DNA from: Bacillota bacterium | GTDB lineage: Bacteria; Bacillota_I; Bacilli_A; RFN20; CAG-288 | Assembly (NCBI GenBank): GCA_023459795.1 | Contig: JAEWSP010000018.1 | Location: 30,946 to 94,945, forward strand | DNA: 64,000 bases | Direction of reading: 5' to 3' | Part shown: positions 11,120 through 55,580 of the stretch, piece after piece | Layout of the letters: each line of letters starts with the position of its first letter | Numbering within the stretch: position 1 is the stretch's first letter | Program-made: the position numbers and the translations under genes | Notes under the pieces: generated by a model | Database searches by the model: none | Told to the model about the DNA's origin: nothing | What the model saw: only the letters and a program-made list of their open reading frames with translations

Positions 11120-12830
11120 ATGAACAAGAACAACGGGCGCCGTCTAATGGCCTTCCTCAACGACCATCTTGCCAAAGTAGGGAAAAAGTATCTCTCCGTC
11201 TTCGATGCCTTCGGAAAAGAGCCGGAGAGAATCAGCGAGAAGACGCTTCTTTCCATCGTGAAGAAGAACAGGAATACGGAATTCGGAAGGAAGCACCATC
11301 TCGACCAGATCCATTCCCTTTCCGACTACCGGAAGGAAGTCCCTGTTTCGGACTACGAAGACTATAGGGAAGCAATCCTTAGGATGCAGGACGGGGGAAA
11401 GGATGTCCTCTTCCAGGGAAAACCGGTCTACTATACGGATACTTCCGGATCGACGGGGAAGAGCAAACGGATTCCTATCTCTGCTACCCAGCAGAAGGCA
11501 ATGAAGAAGAAGAAAGGAAATCCTCAGATCATCCCCTATCTGGAGAAGAAGAACGGATGCTATGACAGGAACCACCGGAAGATCCTCGCCCTGATGGCGA
11601 ATGCCGACATCACCTATACGAAGGACCAAACCCCGATCGGGGATGTCGTCTCCCTGATGCTTTCCAAGGTCAGCGGATTGATGGGGCTCTTCTTTACCAC
11701 CCTTTGGCAAGCCTCACCTCGAACGAGATCCATGACCGCCTCTATGTCCACCTTCTCTTCGCGCTTCCGGAAACGGACATCTATCTCATCATGAGTGCCT
11801 ATCTCAGCGAAACCTGCGGAATGGTGAACTATCTCTTCCAGAACCAGGAACTCTGCTCCATGATCTTGCAGAAGGGAAAATATCGGACTGCGTAAAGCTT
11901 TCCCCCGCCCTAAAGAAGGAACTTGAAAAGAAGCTTGTCCCGCACCCGGAAAGGGCTGAGGAACTAAAAGAAATCCTGGCTTCCGGAAGAGACGGGATCC
12001 TGACCAGGATCTGGCCTAGCCTCACCGTCGTAAGCGGGGTCGGCAGTACAGAGAACAGGCTGCGCCCGTATACGCTTCTTGTAAAAAGGTATCTAGGAAG
12101 CAAAGGACATATTTATTATGCCGCCTATAATTCCTCGGAATCCTTGATGGGGCTGGCAACGGACTACGACACCTTCCTCTATGCACCGGTCCTGGATATG
12201 GCTTATCTGGAATTCCTTCCCCTCGATGAGAAGGAACAGCCGATCCCGGGGAAGATCCTTTCCGTATCCGAGCTTACGGACGGGGCAAAGTACGAGACTG
12301 TCCTGACCAGCCTCTCCGGTCTCTATCGTTATAGGATGGCAGACATCGTCAAGGTCAGCGGACGGAAAGGAAGGCTTCCTCTATTCGAAATCCTAGGACG
12401 GAACAAGGTCCTCCTCGATGTCATGGGAGAGAAATGCACCTTCCATCAGGCAGATGACGCGATTGCCCTCCTAGGAGAAAAGATCGGGGAGAAGGAACAT
12501 CCCATCTATGCCTACTGTGCCACGGAAGGGAATAAGGAAAACCGGTATACCTTCTTCCTGGAAATCAAGGATTCCTCTTCCCTGGATCCGAAGAAGACTT
12601 CTCTCCTTCTGAAGGATTCCCTAGCCCTTGCTTCCCCGGATATCCGGTATGCTTTCGAGGAGGAAGGGCTCCTTCCTCCCGAAGTCTTCTTCGTGAAGGA
12701 AGGGACTTTCCAAAAATACCTCCACAATGAGAACCGGGAAGGAGAAGAAACAAAGCACTCCATCAAGGAGATCAAAGTCCTGAGGACCGAAGAGCAGAAG
12801 AAGTTCTTCAGGGATCATATCGAAGGATAG
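11120..12830 (+). pseudogene. GH3-family (acyl-acid amido synthetase / auxin-responsive GH3-like) gene disrupted by two frameshifts
   Basis: The N-terminal part in frame 2 carries YYTDTSGSTGKSKRIP. The middle part is in frame 1 (SNEIHDRLYVHLLFAL). The C-terminal part in frame 0 carries IWPSL..VVSGV, YYAAYNSSES and GLYRYRMADIV. Shifts map to a G4 run (11683-11686) and an A4 run (11877-11880). Confidence 0.6.
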
Positions 12831-18437: not shown

Positions 18438-20132
18438 ATGATAAGGAGGAATAAAGAATTGGCTTATCAAGCTTATTACAACAAATACCGCCCTCAGACC
18501 TTCGATGAAGTCGTAGGCCAGAAGGCTATCGTCTCCACCCTTAAGAATGCCCTCCGCGAAGGAAAGATTGCCCACGCGTACCTTTTCTGTGGTCCGAGAG
18601 GAACAGGAAAGACGACCATGGCAAGACTCCTTGCCAAAGCCCTCAACTGCAAAGAAGGAATCGGAAGGCAGTGCAACAAATGCGACGACTGCACGAAGAT
18701 CAGCAAGGGCGAGCATCCGGATGTCATCGAGATCGATGCCGCTTCAAATTCCACCGTCGACTCCGTCAGGGCACTGATCGACAACGTCTCCTACCAGCCG
18801 ATCATGGGCCGCTACAAGGTCTATATCATCGACGAAGTCCACAACATGTCCAACTCCGCATTCAACGCCCTTCTGAAGACTTTGGAGGAGCCGCCGTCGT
18901 TTGTCGTCTTCATTTTGGCAACAACCGAACCCCAGAAGATTATTCCGACCATTCTCTCCCGTGTCCAGCGCTTTGATTTCTCCAAGGTCACGGACACGGA
19001 TCTGATCGAGAACATGGAGCATATCCTGAAGAGCGAGAATATCTCCTACGAAGAGGAAGCCCTGAAGCTGGTCGCATCCCTTAGCGACGGCGGAGTAAGA
19101 GACTCTCTTTCTCTGCTCGATCAGCTCGTCTCCTATTCCGGAGACAAGGTTACCGCGGAAGATGCCAACAATCTTTTCGGACTCTTATCTACCGGCGAGG
19201 AACTGAAGCTAGTCGAAGCAATCGAGAAGAAGGATTCCGATACTCTGATCAAATCCGTTCGGGAACGTTACCAGAAGGGAGCCGATATCCCCCGTCTCCA
19301 TAACGACCTGATCGCTATCTACAAGGACCTTCTGATCTACACCGCTACCAAAGACAAGACCCTTCTAGAAAAGCTTAGCGAAGAAGAAGCAAAAAGCTTC
19401 TCCATCCCCGCTTCCAACTTGGAAGTTTCTTTGCGCTGTTTAATCGATGCTGCAAGGGATTACCGGACTTCGGACAATGTCCTTTCCCACTTCGAGCTTT
19501 CCCTTATGAAGCTCCTATATGCCCCTGTAGATACCCATATCGTCGTCTCTTCCAGAAAACCGGCTGCTAGTTCTTCCCCGGTTTCTGTTGCTCCTTCCGA
19601 AAAGGTCCTAGCAACCAAACCTATTGCCGTAGCCTCCAAGAAGAGCGGAGAAGTCTTCAAGCCCAAGGATGATCCCAAGGCATCCGGGAAGATCGGATAT
19701 ACGATCAACGATCTGGCCAACCTCATGAACCTTGCCGTCACCAAGGAGAATGTGGTCTTCCGGAAGAACATCGATACCGCCTGGGAACAGATCAAGCTCT
19801 TCTTCCAGGGCGATGACGACTTCTTTGCTGTTCCTCTCTACGGAAGCAAGGCAAGGTTATATGCCAACAATATCCTTGTCTGCACGAATCCGGTTCCGAT
19901 AGAGCTCGACAAGCTGAACGACAAGAAAGCAGAAGCCTCTCTGATGAAGATCGCCTTAGGCGCCTTCAAAGAAAACATCCATGTCCTTGTCGTCTCCGTA
20001 CCGGACTTCAAGGAAGCCTATGACTGCTTCCGGAACAAGAAGTTTGTGGAAGGGCCTGTCAACATCGACTTCGGCGAATCCAAGGCAAAAGAAAACTCTA
20101 CGGATTTCTTCAACGATCTGATGAAGAAATAG
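18438..20132 (+). CDS. dnaX: DNA polymerase III subunit gamma/tau
   Basis: Walker A GPRGTGKTT, DEVH box, zinc module CNKCDDC. Confidence 0.9.
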   Translation: MIRRNKELAYQAYYNKYRPQTFDEVVGQKAIVSTLKNALREGKIAHAYLFCGPRGTGKTTMARLLAKALNCKEGIGRQCNKCDDCTKISKGEHPDVIEIDAASNSTVDSVRALIDNVSYQPIMGRYKVYIIDEVHNMSNSAFNALLKTLEEPPSFVVFILATTEPQKIIPTILSRVQRFDFSKVTDTDLIENMEHILKSENISYEEEALKLVASLSDGGVRDSLSLLDQLVSYSGDKVTAEDANNLFGLLSTGEELKLVEAIEKKDSDTLIKSVRERYQKGADIPRLHNDLIAIYKDLLIYTATKDKTLLEKLSEEEAKSFSIPASNLEVSLRCLIDAARDYRTSDNVLSHFELSLMKLLYAPVDTHIVVSSRKPAASSSPVSVAPSEKVLATKPIAVASKKSGEVFKPKDDPKASGKIGYTINDLANLMNLAVTKENVVFRKNIDTAWEQIKLFFQGDDDFFAVPLYGSKARLYANNILVCTNPVPIELDKLNDKKAEASLMKIALGAFKENIHVLVVSVPDFKEAYDCFRNKKFVEGPVNIDFGESKAKENSTDFFNDLMKK

Positions 20133-27161: not shown

Positions 27162-28799
<1,638 letters not shown>

Positions 28800-47994: not shown

Positions 47995-48188
47995 ATCGAA
48001 AGGTTCCCCCTAACGGAATTATTCTAACACTCTTAGAGTTGGTTTCTAAGACTAATCCGCAAAAGGAGGGAAGCAATCGCTTTCTTTTCCCAAGGGACTT
48101 GAAAGGCAGCTTTTCAGGGAAATAGAATCCGGATCCAGGGGAAGAGAAAAAAGAGGCTTAACAGCAAGAAAATATCTGTTTTGATTTT

Positions 48189-48222
48189 TGAAAAACGAAA
48201 AACAGCCTCCCTTAGGAGGCTG
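48189..48222 (-). terminator. Rho-independent terminator after pgmB
   Basis: Hairpin CAGCCTCC-ctta-GGAGGCTG with a minus-strand U-run. Confidence 0.5.
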
Positions 48223-48225
48223 TGC

Positions 48226-48879
48226 TTAATTCAGCTTGTTTTCTTTTTGAAGGATAGGAAGGATATCGGAAATGCCGACAAGCGGGTAATCTGTCTGATA
48301 GTAGGATGCTGCTTCTTTTACTCCGGCAGTCTTATACCCGCCTTCCTTGGCGGCTTTGATAGCAGAGAACCCATCCTCGACGACCAGGATATCCTTCGGA
48401 GAGAGGACAAGAGCCTTGGCAATCTTGTCGAAGATAACGGAATCATGTCTTGCGACATCAACGTCGTTTCCGTCGACGACCACATCGAAGACATGTTCCA
48501 TCTTGATCTTGGAAAGAATGGTTTCGCAGTTCGTAGATGCTGTTCCGATAGCTACCTTGATTCCGTTCTTCTTCAAAAGCTCAATGGTGGAACGGACTTC
48601 TTCCGGACAGTCCATCTCGGTGAGCTGGGTAAGAAAATTCTGGTAGATAGCATTCTTTTTGTCGGAAATGGCAATTTTCTCTTCTTCCGTGTAGTTCTTG
48701 TTGGCACGCTTTGCCATCAAGGCGACACAGTCCATGCGGTTGGTTCCCCGCATCTGATTATAAACGGAACGGTCAAAAGGGATTCCTTCCTCCTCGGCTA
48801 CGGATTTCCAGGAACGATAATGGTATTCGTCAGTATCGGCAATTACACCATCGATATTAAAAATAACCGCTTGGATCAT
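48226..48879 (-). CDS. pgmB: HAD-family beta-phosphoglucomutase-like hydrolase
   Basis: IFNIDGVIADTDEYHYRSWK motif I, GTASTN, and EDGFSAIKAAKEGG motif IV. Strong resemblance to beta-PGM. Confidence 0.7.
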   Translation of the reverse strand: MIQAVIFNIDGVIADTDEYHYRSWKSVAEEEGIPFDRSVYNQMRGTNRMDCVALMAKRANKNYTEEEKIAISDKKNAIYQNFLTQLTEMDCPEEVRSTIELLKKNGIKVAIGTASTNCETILSKIKMEHVFDVVVDGNDVDVARHDSVIFDKIAKALVLSPKDILVVEDGFSAIKAAKEGGYKTAGVKEAASYYQTDYPLVGISDILPILQKENKLN

Positions 48880-48961
48880 ACCCGATTCCTCCTTCTGAGG
48901 ACCTCAAATTGAGCGACAAATAGATATTTTATCAAGCAAATTGTTGCAACTCAACTTATGT

Positions 48962-49846
48962 TTACTTAACCCAATCCGTAGCAAACTGGGTGAGATAAGC
49001 AAGATTTCCGTCTTTGGAGAAGTTATGCAAAGCATGCTCCAGAAGCTTTTTATCCGTGCTTAAGGCAAAGCAGGCACTTCCGGACCCGGACATTCCGCAA
49101 AGGGGAAGCCCCATCTCCTTCATCTGATCCAATATTTTCTGGATGAGAGGAAGTGCTTTAATTGCCGGGATGGCAAGAACATTGACAAGGTTCTTTTCGA
49201 TAAGGGACTCGTCTCCCTTCTTCAGTCCTTCGATAAGCTGCGCGATATCCGGATGCCGGACAGTGGCAGGATCAACAAGGTCGTATGCCTGATAGACGCT
49301 CTTGGTAGAGAGTCCGTACGGAGGTTTCACGATAAGGACATAATACAGGGTCTTCACGGAAATCGGAGAAAGCACTTCTCCGACTCCTCCAACCCGGGAA
49401 GGGAGATTGCGGAAGCAGTAAGGAACGTCCGCACCGACAGAAAGAGCAAGCTTGTTGATTTCCTCCTTGCTGCTAGCAGACTTCGGGAAGGCAGGCTCAA
49501 AAGCCCGGAAGATTGCAGCCGCGTCTGCACTTCCTCCGCCAAGTCCGGCTTCCACCGGAATCTTCTTATAAATAAAAATCTTGAACCTTCCGGTGTCGCT
49601 GCAATGTTTCTTCATGACATCGAGTGCCTTGTAGGCAAGGTTCGATTCATCGCAGACAATGCTAGGATCGTCACAGTAAAGATAAGTATCCTGGGTCTCT
49701 CCCGGGATCCTGGAAATTTCAATCGAATCATGGAGCTTGAGAGGAATCGTCACCATATCGATGTTGTGGTATCCATCTTCTCTCTTGCCTAGAACGTCCA
49801 GCGCTAAGTTAATCTTTGCTAAGGCACGAATCACTAGGGTATTCAT
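48962..49846 (-). CDS. ispE: 4-diphosphocytidyl-2-C-methyl-D-erythritol kinase (GHMP kinase)
   Basis: AKINLALDV N-terminus and GHMP motif PVEAGLGGGSADAAA. I chose the start at MNTLVIR (49846). Confidence 0.85.
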   Translation of the reverse strand: MNTLVIRALAKINLALDVLGKREDGYHNIDMVTIPLKLHDSIEISRIPGETQDTYLYCDDPSIVCDESNLAYKALDVMKKHCSDTGRFKIFIYKKIPVEAGLGGGSADAAAIFRAFEPAFPKSASSKEEINKLALSVGADVPYCFRNLPSRVGGVGEVLSPISVKTLYYVLIVKPPYGLSTKSVYQAYDLVDPATVRHPDIAQLIEGLKKGDESLIEKNLVNVLAIPAIKALPLIQKILDQMKEMGLPLCGMSGSGSACFALSTDKKLLEHALHNFSKDGNLAYLTQFATDWVK

Positions 49847-49953
49847 AGATTTATGTCCTTTTCGGGTTTTCAGCGTACCTATTATAACTTTTTTCTTTCT
49901 TGGTAAGTAGAGTACAAGAAACAAGAAAGAAAATAGTTATAATAAAAGGGACC

Positions 49954-50517
49954 ATGGAAAAGAAACTAAGCTCTTACCAGCTTCTAAGGAACCTCGTCCT
50001 TGCCGCTTCTGACCCGTTTGCAACGGATCAGAAGCTTTTCGATATCCAGCATATCCTGGAAGTCAGCGATTCTTTTCAGGGGGTAAACCATCTTCTCCTA
50101 GTCCAAGCCTATCTCAATGAAGATACCCTTCCTTTCTCCGTTACCAGAGAGAAAGCTTACGAACAGGCAAACAGAGCCCTAGAAGAAGGGAACCGGAAAG
50201 CTTGCTACTATCTCTATCTTCTTACCAAAGACGAGAACAAGCTCAAGGCAAGGCGCTACCTCAATGAAGGAGAGTTTTTTCAGGATCCTACGGCTCTTCT
50301 TGCCAAAGGGTTGGAACTCAAATACGGAGGCCTTTTTAGGAAGAACAGGAAGCAGGCAGAACAGATATTCCTGAAAATGATCTCCCTGAAATCCAGGGAA
50401 GGGTATTACCAGCTCCAGCTGATGAAGTCGGAAGACGGAGATTTCTCCTCGGCAAAGATCATCTATGAAGAAGCAAAGAAGAACGGATTCGAGCTTCCGG
50501 GGTATATCTCCGAATGA
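49954..50517 (+). CDS. Hypothetical protein with Sel1/TPR-like repeats (187 aa)
   Basis: Helical repeat character (KACYYLYLL..., GGLFRKNRKQAEQIF). I chose the start at MEKKLSS. Confidence 0.4.
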   Translation: MEKKLSSYQLLRNLVLAASDPFATDQKLFDIQHILEVSDSFQGVNHLLLVQAYLNEDTLPFSVTREKAYEQANRALEEGNRKACYYLYLLTKDENKLKARRYLNEGEFFQDPTALLAKGLELKYGGLFRKNRKQAEQIFLKMISLKSREGYYQLQLMKSEDGDFSSAKIIYEEAKKNGFELPGYISE

Positions 50518-51173
50518 AACGGGCATGGATCTTCGGTGCTGCTCCCTTCGATTATTCCTCTTTGAACCCGAGTCTCTTTAAAGGAGACACTTCGGTAGCC
50601 GCCGATGGCGGCTACCGTTATTTCCTTTCTGCCGGGTTAGAACCGGACCTCTTTGTCGGTGACTTCGATACGCTGAAGAAAGGCGAACTGCAGAAACCGA
50701 AAAGGATTCTGCCTCTGAATCCGGTCAAGGATGACACCGATACTTTGTTCGCTATCAAAGCTTTGCTTAAAGAAGGATACGACACCTTCGTTCTGGTAGG
50801 GTGCCTTGGCGGAAGAATCGATCAAAGCATCGCCAGCATCCAGTATCTCCTGTTTCTGAAAGAAAACAAAGGGAACGGAATCCTTTTATCTGCAGACGGA
50901 AAAGAGGAGCTTAGGATCCTGAAGGACAGCTCCATCCTTCTGTCCGGAAAAAAGAAGTACCGCTATTCCCTCTTCTCCCTTAGCAAAACTTCAATAGGAG
51001 TAACGGAAAGCAACTGCTTCTATCCGCTAAAAGATAAAACACTGACGGATTCCTATCCTTTAGGAGTCAGCAATGAATGCCTGGGAGAGGGCAAGGATAT
51101 CCCTATTTCAGTAAAGAAGGGAACCCTTCTTCTGGTTCTCCCTCTGATTGCCTTAGAAGACCCTTATAAATAG
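50514..51173 (+). CDS. thiN: Thiamine pyrophosphokinase
   Basis: N-terminal catalytic region FGAAPFD...AADGGY...FVGDFDT typical of TPK. Confidence 0.8.
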   Translation: MKRAWIFGAAPFDYSSLNPSLFKGDTSVAADGGYRYFLSAGLEPDLFVGDFDTLKKGELQKPKRILPLNPVKDDTDTLFAIKALLKEGYDTFVLVGCLGGRIDQSIASIQYLLFLKENKGNGILLSADGKEELRILKDSSILLSGKKKYRYSLFSLSKTSIGVTESNCFYPLKDKTLTDSYPLGVSNECLGEGKDIPISVKKGTLLLVLPLIALEDPYK

Positions 51174-51181
51174 AAAAGCAG

Positions 51182-51832
51182 TTATTTTTCTTTTGTTTTC
51201 AGTTCATCAGGAATCGGAACGGATGTCGTCCCCACTTCATCGATTGACCAGCGAGTTTCCCAATTAAAATAATCATTTTTGCTCGTCGAACTCCATAGGA
51301 TTTCTTTAATTTCCCCGTCCTCGGCATAATAAGAATACGTCTGCGAGTAATCCTTCCCTTCAAAATAGATTCCGGTATAACACTTGTTCTTGCTGTTGTA
51401 GGAAAGCTTGGAATAATCCAAGAACCAATCCATCTTTGCTCCATTGTAAGGCATACTCACAATACACCAGCCATATCCATTTTTTGAGCAGTAATACACA
51501 CGAGAACCTTGGACCTGAGAATTAGGTTCTTCATTCGGATTTGGCAGCCAAGATATGCAGGAACATGCCTCAGGATTATCCGGTTCTACATCATTCGTAT
51601 AGGAATAATACTGGTTTACGTAATCATATTGGTACAATTCCGGGAATTCAGGATTCGGAGTACGGACTCCATCTTCCACTCCGATATTGTCAGCAAACAC
51701 CCTGCTTAAGGTAAAAGAGGATTTGGTCAGCTCTCCAACAGAGGAATCATATTCCTCTTTGCTAAGCTTTGTAGAGTTCTTTGAACAGCCCGGAAGAAAG
51801 GAAGCACAAAAGGTAAGAAAGAGAATCTGCAT
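51182..51832 (-). CDS. Lipoprotein (216 aa as given) whose SD-linked start codon is out of frame because of an A8 tract
   Basis: As given the ORF starts MQILFLTFCASFLPGC, with lipobox LPGC but no charged n-region and no SD. ATGs at 51860, 51857 and 51848 with SD AGGGAGA read MMENMKKNSNADS... and stop after 32 codons. With A7 the frame gives MMENMKKTVMQILFLTFCASFLPGC. Confidence 0.55.
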   Translation of the reverse strand: MQILFLTFCASFLPGCSKNSTKLSKEEYDSSVGELTKSSFTLSRVFADNIGVEDGVRTPNPEFPELYQYDYVNQYYSYTNDVEPDNPEACSCISWLPNPNEEPNSQVQGSRVYYCSKNGYGWCIVSMPYNGAKMDWFLDYSKLSYNSKNKCYTGIYFEGKDYSQTYSYYAEDGEIKEILWSSTSKNDYFNWETRWSIDEVGTTSVPIPDELKTKEK

Positions 51833-51837
51833 TACTG

Positions 51838-51845
51838 TTTTTTTT
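51838..51845 (-). repeat. Homopolymeric A8 tract (T8 on plus strand) inside the lipoprotein signal-peptide coding region
   Basis: Counted directly: gtttttttttcatg. Confidence 0.7.
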
Positions 51846-52098
51846 CATGTTTTCCATCATTTTCTCCCTTTTGGTAATTCACCCATTGTAGGAGCGGGAC
51901 CGTAACTTTTAAATGCCGGCCTGCCCTCCCGATTAACTCTTCGTTAGCGTATTCTGCCTCATCAAAAACTGGCCGGGGTTCCTTATTTATTGGTCTTATC
52001 CCGGCATCAAAAAAACAAAACCTGGAAATTGTTCCTTCTTATCTAAAAACCAAGCCTTAATTCCTTTACCAGACACAAAAGATAAACGCTTAAAAAGC

Positions 52099-53799
52099 TT
52101 ATTTCTTTTCCGTAATCTTCCCGTTTTTAACCAGGAGAACCTTGTTGAAGCCAAGCTGATCGCTAAGCCTGTGGGAAATCGATAGAACGGTTCTGCTGCT
52201 GCTTGCAGCAGAAAGGGCCCGGATGACTTCCTGCTCCGTTTCGGAGTCGAGGTTAGCGGAAATCTCGTCCAGCAAAAGAATAGAAGGAGAATTCACAAGG
52301 GCACGGGCAAGGCCTAATAGCTGCAACTGTCCTCTTGAGAAATCGGTCTCCTTGAAGGGGGCATGATAACCACCTTTTATCCTGGTAGAGACATAATCAT
52401 CCAGGAAGGCTTCCTTCATCGCCTTATGGACTGCATCCAAAGAAATCGACTCATCCCCTAAGGTAACCTGATCCAGAACCGTACCGGGAACAGGGGAGAA
52501 CCCCTGTTCGACGTATCCGAAGATCTTCTTCTTTTCCTCGTCCGGAATCTGGATGGTACTGACTCCGTTCACAAGGATTGCTCCCTCGGTTGGAGGAAGA
52601 AGCCCGAGGATCAGCTTGAAGAGGGTGGTCTTTCCGATTCCGGTTCTCCCGGTCAGGGATGCCTGGTCCAAGGAAGAGAGGGAGAAAGAAGCATGGTCAA
52701 AGATATATTCCGTTCCGTCTTCGTAGCGGAAAGAGAGATTGTCAAATTGGAGAATTGGTTTATTTGGCCTAGATAATACATAGGAAGCAGTAAAGGTCTG
52801 GTCTTTTCCGTTTATTTCTTCTTCGTTGAGGAATTCCTCTACCCGGATGACACCAGAGAAGCCTTCCTGCAGGGACTGGAAGTCCTGCCCGAGTTCTTTC
52901 ACCGGAGAGAAAAGATCCTGGATCAGGTTCAGGGAAGCAGCAAAGGAGCCGACGGTAAGACCGACAATCTGGGAAGAGGAATCCAGATTCATCGTCTTGA
53001 CGACAGCAAAGGTAACCAAGGCGATGACGAGGGACTGAAGCAGATCAATAAGGGGCGGATAGAAGGAATCGAACAATGCCGTTCTGTTCTGTGCCTTGTC
53101 GCCATCGATCAGCTTCTCGTTGAATTTGCCTTCCCGATACCCTCTCTTCCCGAGGTTATGGACAGTAACCGCCGTATCGATGGATTCGGAGAGCATATTG
53201 CTTTCCTTGTTTAAGGCAGTCCTTACCTGAAGCTGCGCCTTCTTGCTCTTCCGGCGGAACAGTTCCGTAAGGAGAAAAATCAGCGGAACGGTAGCGAGAA
53301 GTATCAGTCCCAGCACCCAGCTGAAATAGAACACGGAGACCGTAATAGAGATAATCTTCAGGGAAGAAACAAGAATAGAAACCAGTCCGCTCTCAAACAA
53401 GGTTTCGATTGCTGTGACATCATCCATGATGTGGGATGTCATCTCGCCGGTTCCGTGCTTGGTGAAATACCCGGGTTTCATCTTATGTGTCTTCTGGATC
53501 ATCAGCCTCCTAAGGTCTGCAATCATCTCCTGGCCCATCCTATCGACAAGATAGGTCTCCAGGAAGGAGAACATTGCGGAGAGAAGATAGCTTCCGAAGT
53601 AGAGCAGGGTAATGCCTAGGAAGGAGACTCCGACTTCGGCTGCCGTATCAAAGTACTGATCGAAGATGATCTTCAGAAAGAAGGATGGGGCAAGGACAAG
53701 AGAGGATTCCATCAGTATCGAAACAGCAAGAAGGATTGTCTCCTTGATATGTTTCCGGATATATCCTTTCAGGAAGGACCGGACTGTGAATTTTTTCAT
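52099..53799 (-). CDS. ABC exporter, fused permease/ATP-binding subunit (heterodimer partner 1)
   Basis: Six-TM domain plus NBD. Walker A GRTGIGKTT, signature FSRGQLQLL and Walker B ILLLDE. The ATG overlaps the upstream gene's stop (ATGA). Confidence 0.85.
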   Translation of the reverse strand: MKKFTVRSFLKGYIRKHIKETILLAVSILMESSLVLAPSFFLKIIFDQYFDTAAEVGVSFLGITLLYFGSYLLSAMFSFLETYLVDRMGQEMIADLRRLMIQKTHKMKPGYFTKHGTGEMTSHIMDDVTAIETLFESGLVSILVSSLKIISITVSVFYFSWVLGLILLATVPLIFLLTELFRRKSKKAQLQVRTALNKESNMLSESIDTAVTVHNLGKRGYREGKFNEKLIDGDKAQNRTALFDSFYPPLIDLLQSLVIALVTFAVVKTMNLDSSSQIVGLTVGSFAASLNLIQDLFSPVKELGQDFQSLQEGFSGVIRVEEFLNEEEINGKDQTFTASYVLSRPNKPILQFDNLSFRYEDGTEYIFDHASFSLSSLDQASLTGRTGIGKTTLFKLILGLLPPTEGAILVNGVSTIQIPDEEKKKIFGYVEQGFSPVPGTVLDQVTLGDESISLDAVHKAMKEAFLDDYVSTRIKGGYHAPFKETDFSRGQLQLLGLARALVNSPSILLLDEISANLDSETEQEVIRALSAASSSRTVLSISHRLSDQLGFNKVLLVKNGKITEKK

Positions 53800-55580
53800 T
53801 TCCCTGCCTCCCCGCTTGTTGTCTGAAGCTCCCAAAGCCTCTTGTAGCAGGAAGACTTCTTCAGCAGTTCTTCATGGGTGCCGAAAGACCATCTGCCGTT
53901 TCCTTCCAGGACCAGGATTCCATCCAGGTCCGGGAACAGGGAAAGCCTATGGGAGACTAGAAGAATCAAGGACTCCTTCTTCCTCTCTTCCAGAACGGTC
54001 TTCCGGATTTCTCTTTCCGTTGTCACATCGATGCTGGCAAAAGGATCGTCTAAGAGGATCAGATCCTTCGGATGGGAAAGAGTTCTTGCCAAAGCAATTC
54101 TTTCCTGCTGACCTCCGGACAGCTTGACGCCTTCATTTCCAACTATTGTCTTCTCCCCTTCCGGCATACCGGAAAGATCCTTTGCAAAGGAAACAGAGGC
54201 AAGAGCTTTCCCGACATCCACATTATCTCCATATGCTACATTGTCTTTAAGAGTATCCGTCAAAAGGTCCGCCTTATGTCCCATATAGGAGATTGTTCCG
54301 ACAATCTCCGGGTCCGAATAGTCTTTAACTTCTTTTCCAAACAAGGCCATGCTTCCGGAATACGGAAGAACCTTTAGAAGCGTTTTAAGAAATACGCTTT
54401 TTCCAGAAGCAATCTCTCCTGTTATTCCGATAATCTGTCCCTTCTTTGCAGTGAAAGATAAATTTGTAATCCGGTCTTTGTTCGATAAAGTAAGGGTGTA
54501 GTCCTTCAAGACCAAGGAATCGTCCTTCTTCACTTCCTCCGGCGACTCATACGGAGCATAAGGCTTCATGAATGGCTGTATTCTCCTCCAGCTGGCAAGA
54601 CCTTTCTGGACCGTTGTGAAAAGCTTTGCCGTATGGCTCGACTTCTTGGCAAGAAGAATGAAGACCGTAAGGTAAGCTTCGAAAAGTCCGTCATCCCAGA
54701 CATCGGAAGGGAGAAGAGGATTAGGATAGAAAACAGGAGTACCATTCCGGACCATTCCGATTCCGAGGTAAAGGATAGGTATCAATCCGACAAGGGCAAG
54801 GATATCGACAACAGGCATCATGGTATCGGAAAGAACGTTGCTTTTAGTCGTATCCTTCTGATACTGGGAGAGTGCCTTGCTTGCTTTTTCTTCGATTGCC
54901 TTGTCTCTTCCGTATACCCGGTAAAGGAGAGCGTGGTCGAAGGTATCGAAGGCCAGAGAGGAGACTACGGAATAGCTCTTCCGGCTCTTTGCCTGAGAAG
55001 TATAGACCAGTTTTCTCAAGACAAAAGCAACCAGGATCGAGAAAGCAACCGGGATCAAGGCAAAGGCAGTGATCCTTGGATCAAAGAGGAAGAGATAAGC
55101 AATATAAGACAGGAACAGGATGACGGTATCGAAGATCTCGGTCGTAATCTTCCGCATGCCTTCTACGGCTGCTTTGACATCTCCCATTGCTCTGGAGAGA
55201 AGAGCACCGACATTCTCTTTCTGCAGGTCTTCCGGTTTTTCCTGGAGCAGGTTGTTGTAGACATTGAGCCGCATCGCATGGGTTGTCTGATAAGCAAACA
55301 CCCGGATTCCAAATCTCTTTCCGGAACGGAATCCTTGGACTATAAGCATTGCCAGAAGATAGTATACTAGCAATGCCAGGATAGAAGAGACATCGCTCTT
55401 TGCCGAAACAGCATTGATAAGCCTGCCCTGGAAATAAGGGTTGGCAATCATGCCGATGTTGTATCCGATTCCAGTGACCGTGATAAAAAGAAGGAGCCAG
55501 AAATGGTCCTTCCAGTAAGACGATAAATGATCTGGTTTGTCGGTCAGTTTATAACCGCCGGATTCGATAATGGCTTTCAT
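53796..55580 (-). CDS. ABC exporter, fused permease/ATP-binding subunit (heterodimer partner 2)
   Basis: Walker A GEIASGKSV, signature LSGGQQERIALAR and Walker B LILLDDPFASID. Confidence 0.85.
   Translation of the reverse strand: MKAIIESGGYKLTDKPDHLSSYWKDHFWLLLFITVTGIGYNIGMIANPYFQGRLINAVSAKSDVSSILALLVYYLLAMLIVQGFRSGKRFGIRVFAYQTTHAMRLNVYNNLLQEKPEDLQKENVGALLSRAMGDVKAAVEGMRKITTEIFDTVILFLSYIAYLFLFDPRITAFALIPVAFSILVAFVLRKLVYTSQAKSRKSYSVVSSLAFDTFDHALLYRVYGRDKAIEEKASKALSQYQKDTTKSNVLSDTMMPVVDILALVGLIPILYLGIGMVRNGTPVFYPNPLLPSDVWDDGLFEAYLTVFILLAKKSSHTAKLFTTVQKGLASWRRIQPFMKPYAPYESPEEVKKDDSLVLKDYTLTLSNKDRITNLSFTAKKGQIIGITGEIASGKSVFLKTLLKVLPYSGSMALFGKEVKDYSDPEIVGTISYMGHKADLLTDTLKDNVAYGDNVDVGKALASVSFAKDLSGMPEGEKTIVGNEGVKLSGGQQERIALARTLSHPKDLILLDDPFASIDVTTEREIRKTVLEERKKESLILLVSHRLSLFPDLDGILVLEGNGRWSFGTHEELLKKSSCYKRLWELQTTSGEAGK

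Follow-up and report, generated by a model that had tools for sequence, protein, structure and literature searches.

An A8 tract in the gene for a small orphan lipoprotein of an uncultured Bacilli bacterium: probably a fixed +1 frameshift and a young pseudogene

The A8 locus and its lipoprotein family

The window is the whole 64-kb stretch of DNA that was analyzed. It has a GC content of 47.6%. The locus lies on its minus strand (Table 1). It contains a Shine-Dalgarno (SD) core, GGGAG, then AAA, and then ATG ATG GAA AAC ATG. The last of these ATGs, at 51848, is followed by eight A residues, CAGTA, and another ATG at 51832. The SD-linked frame reads MMENMKKNSNADSLSYLLCFLSSGLFKELYKA and ends after 32 codons at a TAG (51764 to 51762). 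From the sequence, this remnant should be the product of SD-directed ribosomes.

The lipoprotein frame is blocked upstream by a TGA (51847 to 51845), and its first possible start is the ATG at 51832. The AAACATGAAAAAAAACAGTA ahead of this ATG contains no SD core. The frame then reads MQILFLTFCASFLPGC... (MQILFLTFCASFLPGCSKN...) for 216 codons and ends at a TAA (51184 to 51182). Its lipobox Cys codon is at 51787 to 51785. The product from ATG 51832 keeps the h-region and the lipobox but has no Lys or Arg n-region, so it lacks part of the lipoprotein signature. Deletion of one A from the A8 run fuses the two frames into MMENMKKTVMQILFLTFCASFLPGC. These points had been made in a preliminary description: that the SD-linked ATGs (51860, 51857, and 51848) stop after 32 codons, that the long ORF can start only at an ATG without an SD and encodes no charged n-region, and that removal of one A yields a lipoprotein signal peptide. 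All were confirmed on the sequence.

Table 1. Coordinates of the features of the A8 locus and of other genes in the window
Feature	Position	Strand	Remarks
Promoter-like site TTTAAA, 17-nt spacer, TACAAT	51885..51913	-	~25 nt upstream of first ATG; consensus scan
Shine-Dalgarno core GGGAG	51864..51868	-	3, 6, and 15 nt ahead of ATGs 51860, 51857, and 51848; sequence
Out-of-frame remnant ORF	51762..51860	-	Ancestral start MMENMKK, 25 missense codons, TAG
A8 tract (T8 on plus strand)	51838..51845	-	+1 frameshift lesion; intact allele here is AAAAAAG
Lipoprotein body ORF	51182..51832	-	216 codons; no SD, no charged n-region; otherwise intact in window strain
Codon ACC (T41 of 216-aa ORF)	51710..51712	-	Intact in window; A 51712 deleted in 13 related loci
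Codon CAG (Q106)	51515..51517	-	Intact in window; TAG in 15 related loci
GH3-family gene	11120..12830	+	Two one-base deletions divide it among three frames
(GAA)n repeat inside GH3	11494..11512	+	Lys run of protein
DnaX	18438..20132	+	
GroEL	27162..28793	-	
dnaA	59744..61135	+	Near window end

The A8 tract is the only homopolymer of at least 8 nt in the window. A first-order Markov model predicts 6.7 ± 2.6 A/T runs of at least 8 nt, and one was observed. By number the tract is therefore no excess, and it is a lone exception in a run-avoiding sequence. A/T runs of at least 7 nt are also depleted (12 observed versus 21.3 expected). The depletion would fit selection against slippery runs. According to Baranov et al. 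2005 (PMC1088944), such selection typically begins at 9 nt, but in some organisms a run of 8 A's is productive.

An SD core precedes 18 of the 45 longest-ORF starts in the window, compared with 15% of internal start-like codons. SD use in this genome is moderate. A start without an SD is thus not necessarily silent. The promoter-like site has 9 of 12 consensus matches; four such sites were found, compared with 2.1 expected in shuffled sequences. It is a weak candidate promoter. The site lies inside the stretch that is homologous to the strains with an intact gene, for two of which (L002 and L003) homology begins at ~51922 to 51945.

The product of the predicted lipoprotein gene has no Pfam match, and its distant homologues have none either. 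In a word-indexed search of 5.8 billion proteins, the sole match was the product's own 90% cluster. Three further homologues, with 30 to 37% identity, came from an exhaustive HMMER search of 1.84 billion representatives. The family is tiny, comprising the window ORF and these homologues (P0008 to P0010) in four clusters at 50% identity among the 1.84 billion representatives. Scans of species-representative genomes with the lipoprotein and with DnaA as the queries found no relative. The gene appears to encode a small orphan lipoprotein of an uncultured Bacilli bacterium from environmental metagenomes.

The three distant homologues are single-frame proteins that start with MKK or MRK, followed by a hydrophobic stretch and then GC. 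Their signal peptides are MRKTFLLVLSLLFILPGC, MKKSCLLIVSSLLLISGC, and MKKTKRLSTIALTLVFLFCGIALFGC, the third of which ends in LFGC. When the repaired protein is aligned with the three homologues, its residues M5, K7, G24, C25, and S26 do not vary. These invariant N-terminal residues place the family start at the MKK of ATG 51848, which precedes the A run. A charged n-region, an h-region, and a lipobox Cys are present in the repaired reading and in the intact orthologue, both with MMENMKKAVMQILFLTLCASFLPG directly before the Cys.

An AlphaFold model was built on the four-sequence alignment. It had moderate confidence (pLDDT 70.9, pTM 0.70) and consisted of one helix on a curved antiparallel sheet. 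Foldseek returned weak matches (TM 0.2 to 0.43) to VioE, LolA/LolA3, EPDR, and lipocalin-type open barrels. The model hints at a fold that may bind hydrophobic ligands.

Tract alleles and lesions in related strains

The 90% protein cluster has seven members. It includes the 216-aa product of the window, 225- and 224-aa proteins (MMENMKKAVMQILFLTLCASFLPGC, MENMKKAV...), and C-terminal fragments of 90 and 105 aa. The contigs of the members were retrieved and gave 20 loci.

The window shares exactly the same A8 tract with 12 independent contigs that derive from different samples and assemblers (L001, L004, L006, L007, L008 [= L015], L009, L010, L011, L012, L013, L014, and L020). Their sources are MEGAHIT-style k141, SPAdes NODE, JGI, and Logan contigs. 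An in-frame allele, ATG-AAAAAA-G-CAGTAATG (A6G), is found in four contigs of the same species (L002, L003, L016, and L017). It reads ATG-AAAAAA-GCA-GTA-ATG and encodes MMENMKKAVMQILFLTLCASFLPGC in an intact ORF of 225 or 224 aa. The window is +1 relative to this allele, and the contigs are otherwise 96 to 97% identical. The proposal that the true start is the SD-linked cluster, uncoupled from the gene by a one-base change, is borne out by these four contigs and by the MKK or MRK starts of the three homologues.

Comparison of tract length among related strains had been suggested as a check for switching. The assembled contigs showed no heterogeneity. All 13 uninterrupted runs were A8, the interrupted A6G was the sole other allele, and neither A7 nor A9 was found. 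A gapped-pattern census of the tract in JGI metagenomes returned one contig, which was already in the set. In an exact look-up, the full-length A7 product of the window haplotype was absent from ~15 billion proteins, which is a weak negative. Shorter A7 queries were absent too, as were short positive controls, and the full-length result alone counts. The preliminary description had also considered a uniform A8 in a family whose members start at MQILFL. The uniform A8 was indeed seen in the contigs, but the intact orthologues start with MMENMKK.

Two further lesions were found in the gene body of relatives. Loss of A 51712 turns CTTTTACC into CTTTTCC. It is a second frameshift, it lies outside any homopolymer, and it is carried by 13 related loci. 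The other lesion is the nonsense codon at Q106. It is carried by the same 13 loci and by L018 and L019, which do not have the second frameshift and whose 5' ends lie outside contig coverage. The lesions are nested. The window and L001 have A8 only, and the 13 loci have A8, the nonsense codon, and the loss of A 51712. Compensation of the +1 at A8 by the -1 at 51712 in relatives was considered and rejected, because the SD-linked frame meets the TAG at 51764 to 51762 before it reaches the second lesion.

One Logan contig, L005 (SRR27197521_57063; 17,370 bp), begins exactly at A7 plus CAGTAATG, inside the tract. This start is a weak hint of A7/A8 coexistence in SRR27197521, where a de Bruijn branch point would be expected at that position. 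It could equally be explained by read-error k-mers. Both other lesions, the loss of A 51712 and the Q106 nonsense codon, are present in the L005 strain as well, so that A7 there could not restore the gene. L010 likewise begins at a polymorphic site, just after a SNP at window position 51881.

The strains with the intact allele (L002, L003, L016, and L017; positions 1 to 2920) have different upstream neighbors. Upstream of the intact allele are genes for a 428- or 432-aa protein and a 445-aa radical-SAM protein, and a 57-aa ORF. In the window, two ABC exporter genes are found there. They encode exporter-type fused permease-ATPases (Pfam ABC_membrane and ABC_tran). Homology of the four contigs to the window (the ~51922 to 52100 region) starts only ~60 to 85 nt upstream of the first ATG.

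The window and its relatives are strongly mosaic across 48000 to 54500. No differences were found over 48000 to 50000 and most of ~51800 to 52800. Divergence was 4 to 5% over 50200 to 51750 and 53000 to 54100. Near the tract, there were 0 to 7 differences in 51846 to 52600, compared with 24 to 28 in 51182 to 51837. The A8-bearing 5' end therefore lies in a block that strains have shared by recent recombination, and the breakpoint is near 51750 to 51820. The gene body outside this block is ~4% diverged, with a dN/dS of ~0.14, and A8, lying in a near-identical block, is young relative to that divergence.

Each pairwise comparison over the 216 codons, two A8 carriers included, gave a dN/dS ratio of 0.13 to 0.19. 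The gene was thus functional and under constraint in the species at one time. The mostly synonymous changes in the gene body presumably predate A8 and arose while the body was linked to intact starts. As a test for relaxed selection, the comparison gave extra lesions in the A8 relatives, yet a dN/dS of 0.13 to 0.19, a ratio that is confounded by recombination; the window copy has no second lesion.

Reading of the A8 tract

We consider it probable that A8 is a real, fixed +1 frameshift and that the lipoprotein gene is a young pseudogene. Compared with the intact orthologues within its species, the gene has a broken reading frame. Judged from the sequences, the in-frame state is ancestral, with the SD-linked ATG cluster and M(M)ENMKK-A-VMQILFLTLCASFLPG ahead of the lipobox Cys. 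A G-to-A change in AAAAAAGCA (KKA) may have produced an uninterrupted A7 (KKT), an intermediate that is absent from the assembled contigs. Replication slippage would then have added one A (A7 to A8). After this step, SD-directed ribosomes would make a 32-residue nonsense peptide and would cross ATG 51832 out of frame, leaving the lipoprotein body with an SD-less start and a signal peptide without the Lys-Lys n-region. With neither, the protein is predicted to be made poorly or not at all.

The A8 allele has spread among strains by homologous recombination. Selection would have lapsed after A8 arose, and most of the strains have since gained the nonsense codon and the second frameshift. The further knockout lesions in most A8 relatives argue for this lapse. 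The window strain carries the first lesion only and thus represents the earliest stage of decay. We infer loss of function in the window strain itself. As a counterpoint, its 216-codon ORF has no other lesion, and reversion of A8 to A7 would by itself restore the gene.

It is unlikely that A8 is tolerated and that the gene is leaky. Protein would then be made from the SD-less ATG 51832 or by slippage on the run, in which a minority of the mRNAs would lack one A or a minority of the ribosomes would slip by +1. The ORF in the window is intact, it still encodes the h-region and lipobox downstream of ATG 51832, and the moderate SD use of the genome agrees with such a start. However, SD-started ribosomes cross ATG 51832 in another frame, and most strains carry further inactivating lesions on the A8 background, which argues that little selectable function is left. 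The low dN/dS would fit a leaky gene, but it is accounted for by the recombination mosaic. Low dN/dS as proof of a harmless A8 was dropped, since the mosaic confounds the ratio.

The productive runs of 8 A's in some organisms (PMC1088944) would likewise favor slippage. Against it, no stimulatory structure or internal SD was found, a -1 ribosomal slip yields the wrong frame, and the tract is not conserved in the intact orthologues (A6G). The run has 8 nt (fewer than 9), the zero-frame codons after it are AAC AGT, and recoding would need a shift of +1 or -2. The RNA fold at the tract was not unusual (z = 0.22), and it had no Rfam match. Programmed frameshifting or slippage was rated unlikely, as recoding signals are absent and the slippery two-frame layout is not conserved. 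The identity of A8 among strains reflects the recently shared block and not a conserved slippery site.

Reversible phase variation had been raised in the preliminary description, and we consider it improbable. In this scheme, A7 and A8 would interconvert by slipped-strand mispairing, often enough to be useful, and would switch the lipoprotein ON and OFF. The tract occupies codons 6 to 8, in the Lys-Lys n-region of a surface lipoprotein of a Bacilli lineage, and the window ORF is otherwise intact. The start of L005 exactly at A7 may reflect an A7/A8 branch in that sample, but A7 in that strain could not restore the gene. All 13 uninterrupted runs are A8, with no A7 or A9 assembled. The absence of a full-length A7 product of the window haplotype among ~15 billion proteins adds a weak negative. 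The relatives carry a nonsense codon and a frameshift outside any homopolymer, and such additional irreversible lesions in 13 to 15 related loci are unexpected for a maintained switch. Of the marks of a contingency locus, a mutable tract at the 5' end of the gene for a surface product is present. Length polymorphism was not found. The ORF is otherwise intact in the window and L001, but 13 A8 loci have the second frameshift and 15 loci the nonsense codon.

The same three-allele layout is known from Listeria monocytogenes inlA, whose 5' poly(A) has the alleles A2GA4, A7, and A6 (Orsi et al. 2010, PMC2831843). Both cases are from the class Bacilli and have an A run in the first codons of a gene for a secreted surface protein. 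Both have an interrupted, stable in-frame allele (A2GA4 there and A6G here), an uninterrupted run, and a one-base length change that ends the product within a few codons. In both, alleles moved between lineages by homologous recombination. The inlA layout speaks for switching at A8, but the in-frame and out-of-frame lengths of inlA coexist within one clade and differ only by the indel, which is not so here. Only the out-of-frame length was seen, the in-frame uninterrupted A7 is hypothetical, and most carriers have extra lesions. Reversion of inlA was measured at ~5e-7, and A6/A7 switching at only ~1e-7 to 1e-8 (PMC2831843). At this low rate, short runs of A in repair-proficient organisms of the Bacillus type would act as mutational hotspots and not as fast switches.

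Poly(A) frameshift phase variation is also described for Mycoplasma fermentans p78 and M. hominis vaa (Theiss & Wise 1997; Zhang & Wise 1997; summarized in PMC2831843). Like this locus, they have a poly(A) of 7 to 8 nt in the part of a surface lipoprotein gene that encodes the N terminus, and a one-base change truncates the product. They differ in that no switching was seen here and the ORF decays in relatives. The p78 and vaa tracts reportedly switch at 1e-3 to 1e-4 in loci that are otherwise intact. The p78 protein of M. fermentans is the substrate-binding lipoprotein of its own ABC operon. The ABC genes upstream of A8, unlike those of p78, are of the exporter type, and they are absent beside the intact allele.

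Should the locus be a switch after all, which we doubt, window-type strains of an uncultured, sewage/landfill-type Bacilli bacterium would toggle A7/A8 and switch an orphan, possibly LolA/VioE-like surface lipoprotein. The multiply lesioned relatives would then be lineages with permanent OFF, and L005 would be the first trace of heterogeneity.

A homopolymer basecalling or assembly error with a true A7, which the preliminary description had left open, is highly improbable. In its favor, A8 is the longest homopolymer in the window, and the window matches one metagenome scaffold (L001/L023) without a difference. Against it, A8 is uniform in twelve independent contigs from several samples and pipelines, the relatives carry non-homopolymer lesions, and only 2 of ~45 window genes are disrupted, with one of the two GH3 deletions confirmed in independent samples.

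The fixed frameshift resembles pseudogenes of endosymbionts. There, homopolymer-initiated pseudogenes are reportedly rescued in part by transcriptional slippage (Tamas et al. 2008). In both cases a poly(A) frameshift is the first decay lesion, and slippage could in principle correct a few transcripts. Rescue in endosymbionts has been documented at runs of 9 to 10 or more in very AT-rich, reduced genomes, whereas the run here is 8, the GC content is 47.6%, and runs are depleted.

If A8 is the fixed frameshift that we favor, the locus should be annotated as a frameshifted pseudogene and not as a 216-aa protein. It may also serve as a calibration case, in which a textbook-looking phase-variation signature becomes an ordinary recent fixed frameshift once populations are compared. 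It would have no wider biological consequence unless reads reveal true switching of the tract.

The GH3 gene and other window features

The GH3-family gene was compared with an intact 569-aa orthologue (P0011; 94% identity) and with GH3 loci (L021 to L032) that were reached via the neighboring TrpRS gene. The preliminary description had reported two frameshifts in this gene. Two one-base deletions were found, but its coordinates (11683 to 11686 and 11877 to 11880) were slightly off. The first deletion is at ~11699/11700 (C4 to C3) and is present only in the window's own scaffold. The second is at ~11852 (CTCCTG to CTCTG) and also occurs in L024 and L029, whose samples are different ones. In L027 the gene carries other lesions of independent origin, and in six loci it is intact. 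This nested, strain-polymorphic decay supports the window frameshifts as biology and not error. The frameshifts in this metagenome-derived sequence would thus be biological and not assembly artifacts.

The (GAA)n repeat inside GH3 has an in-frame copy-number polymorphism. Some strains have one unit fewer than the window, and L027 has two more. Unlike A8, this repeat is truly length-variable. The window also encodes DnaX, GroEL, and, near its end, dnaA. An identical GroEL is recorded at NCBI from a Bacilli bacterium, and Candidatus Enterosoma, at 78%, is the closest genus with a name. From the position of dnaA, the window probably adjoins the replication origin.
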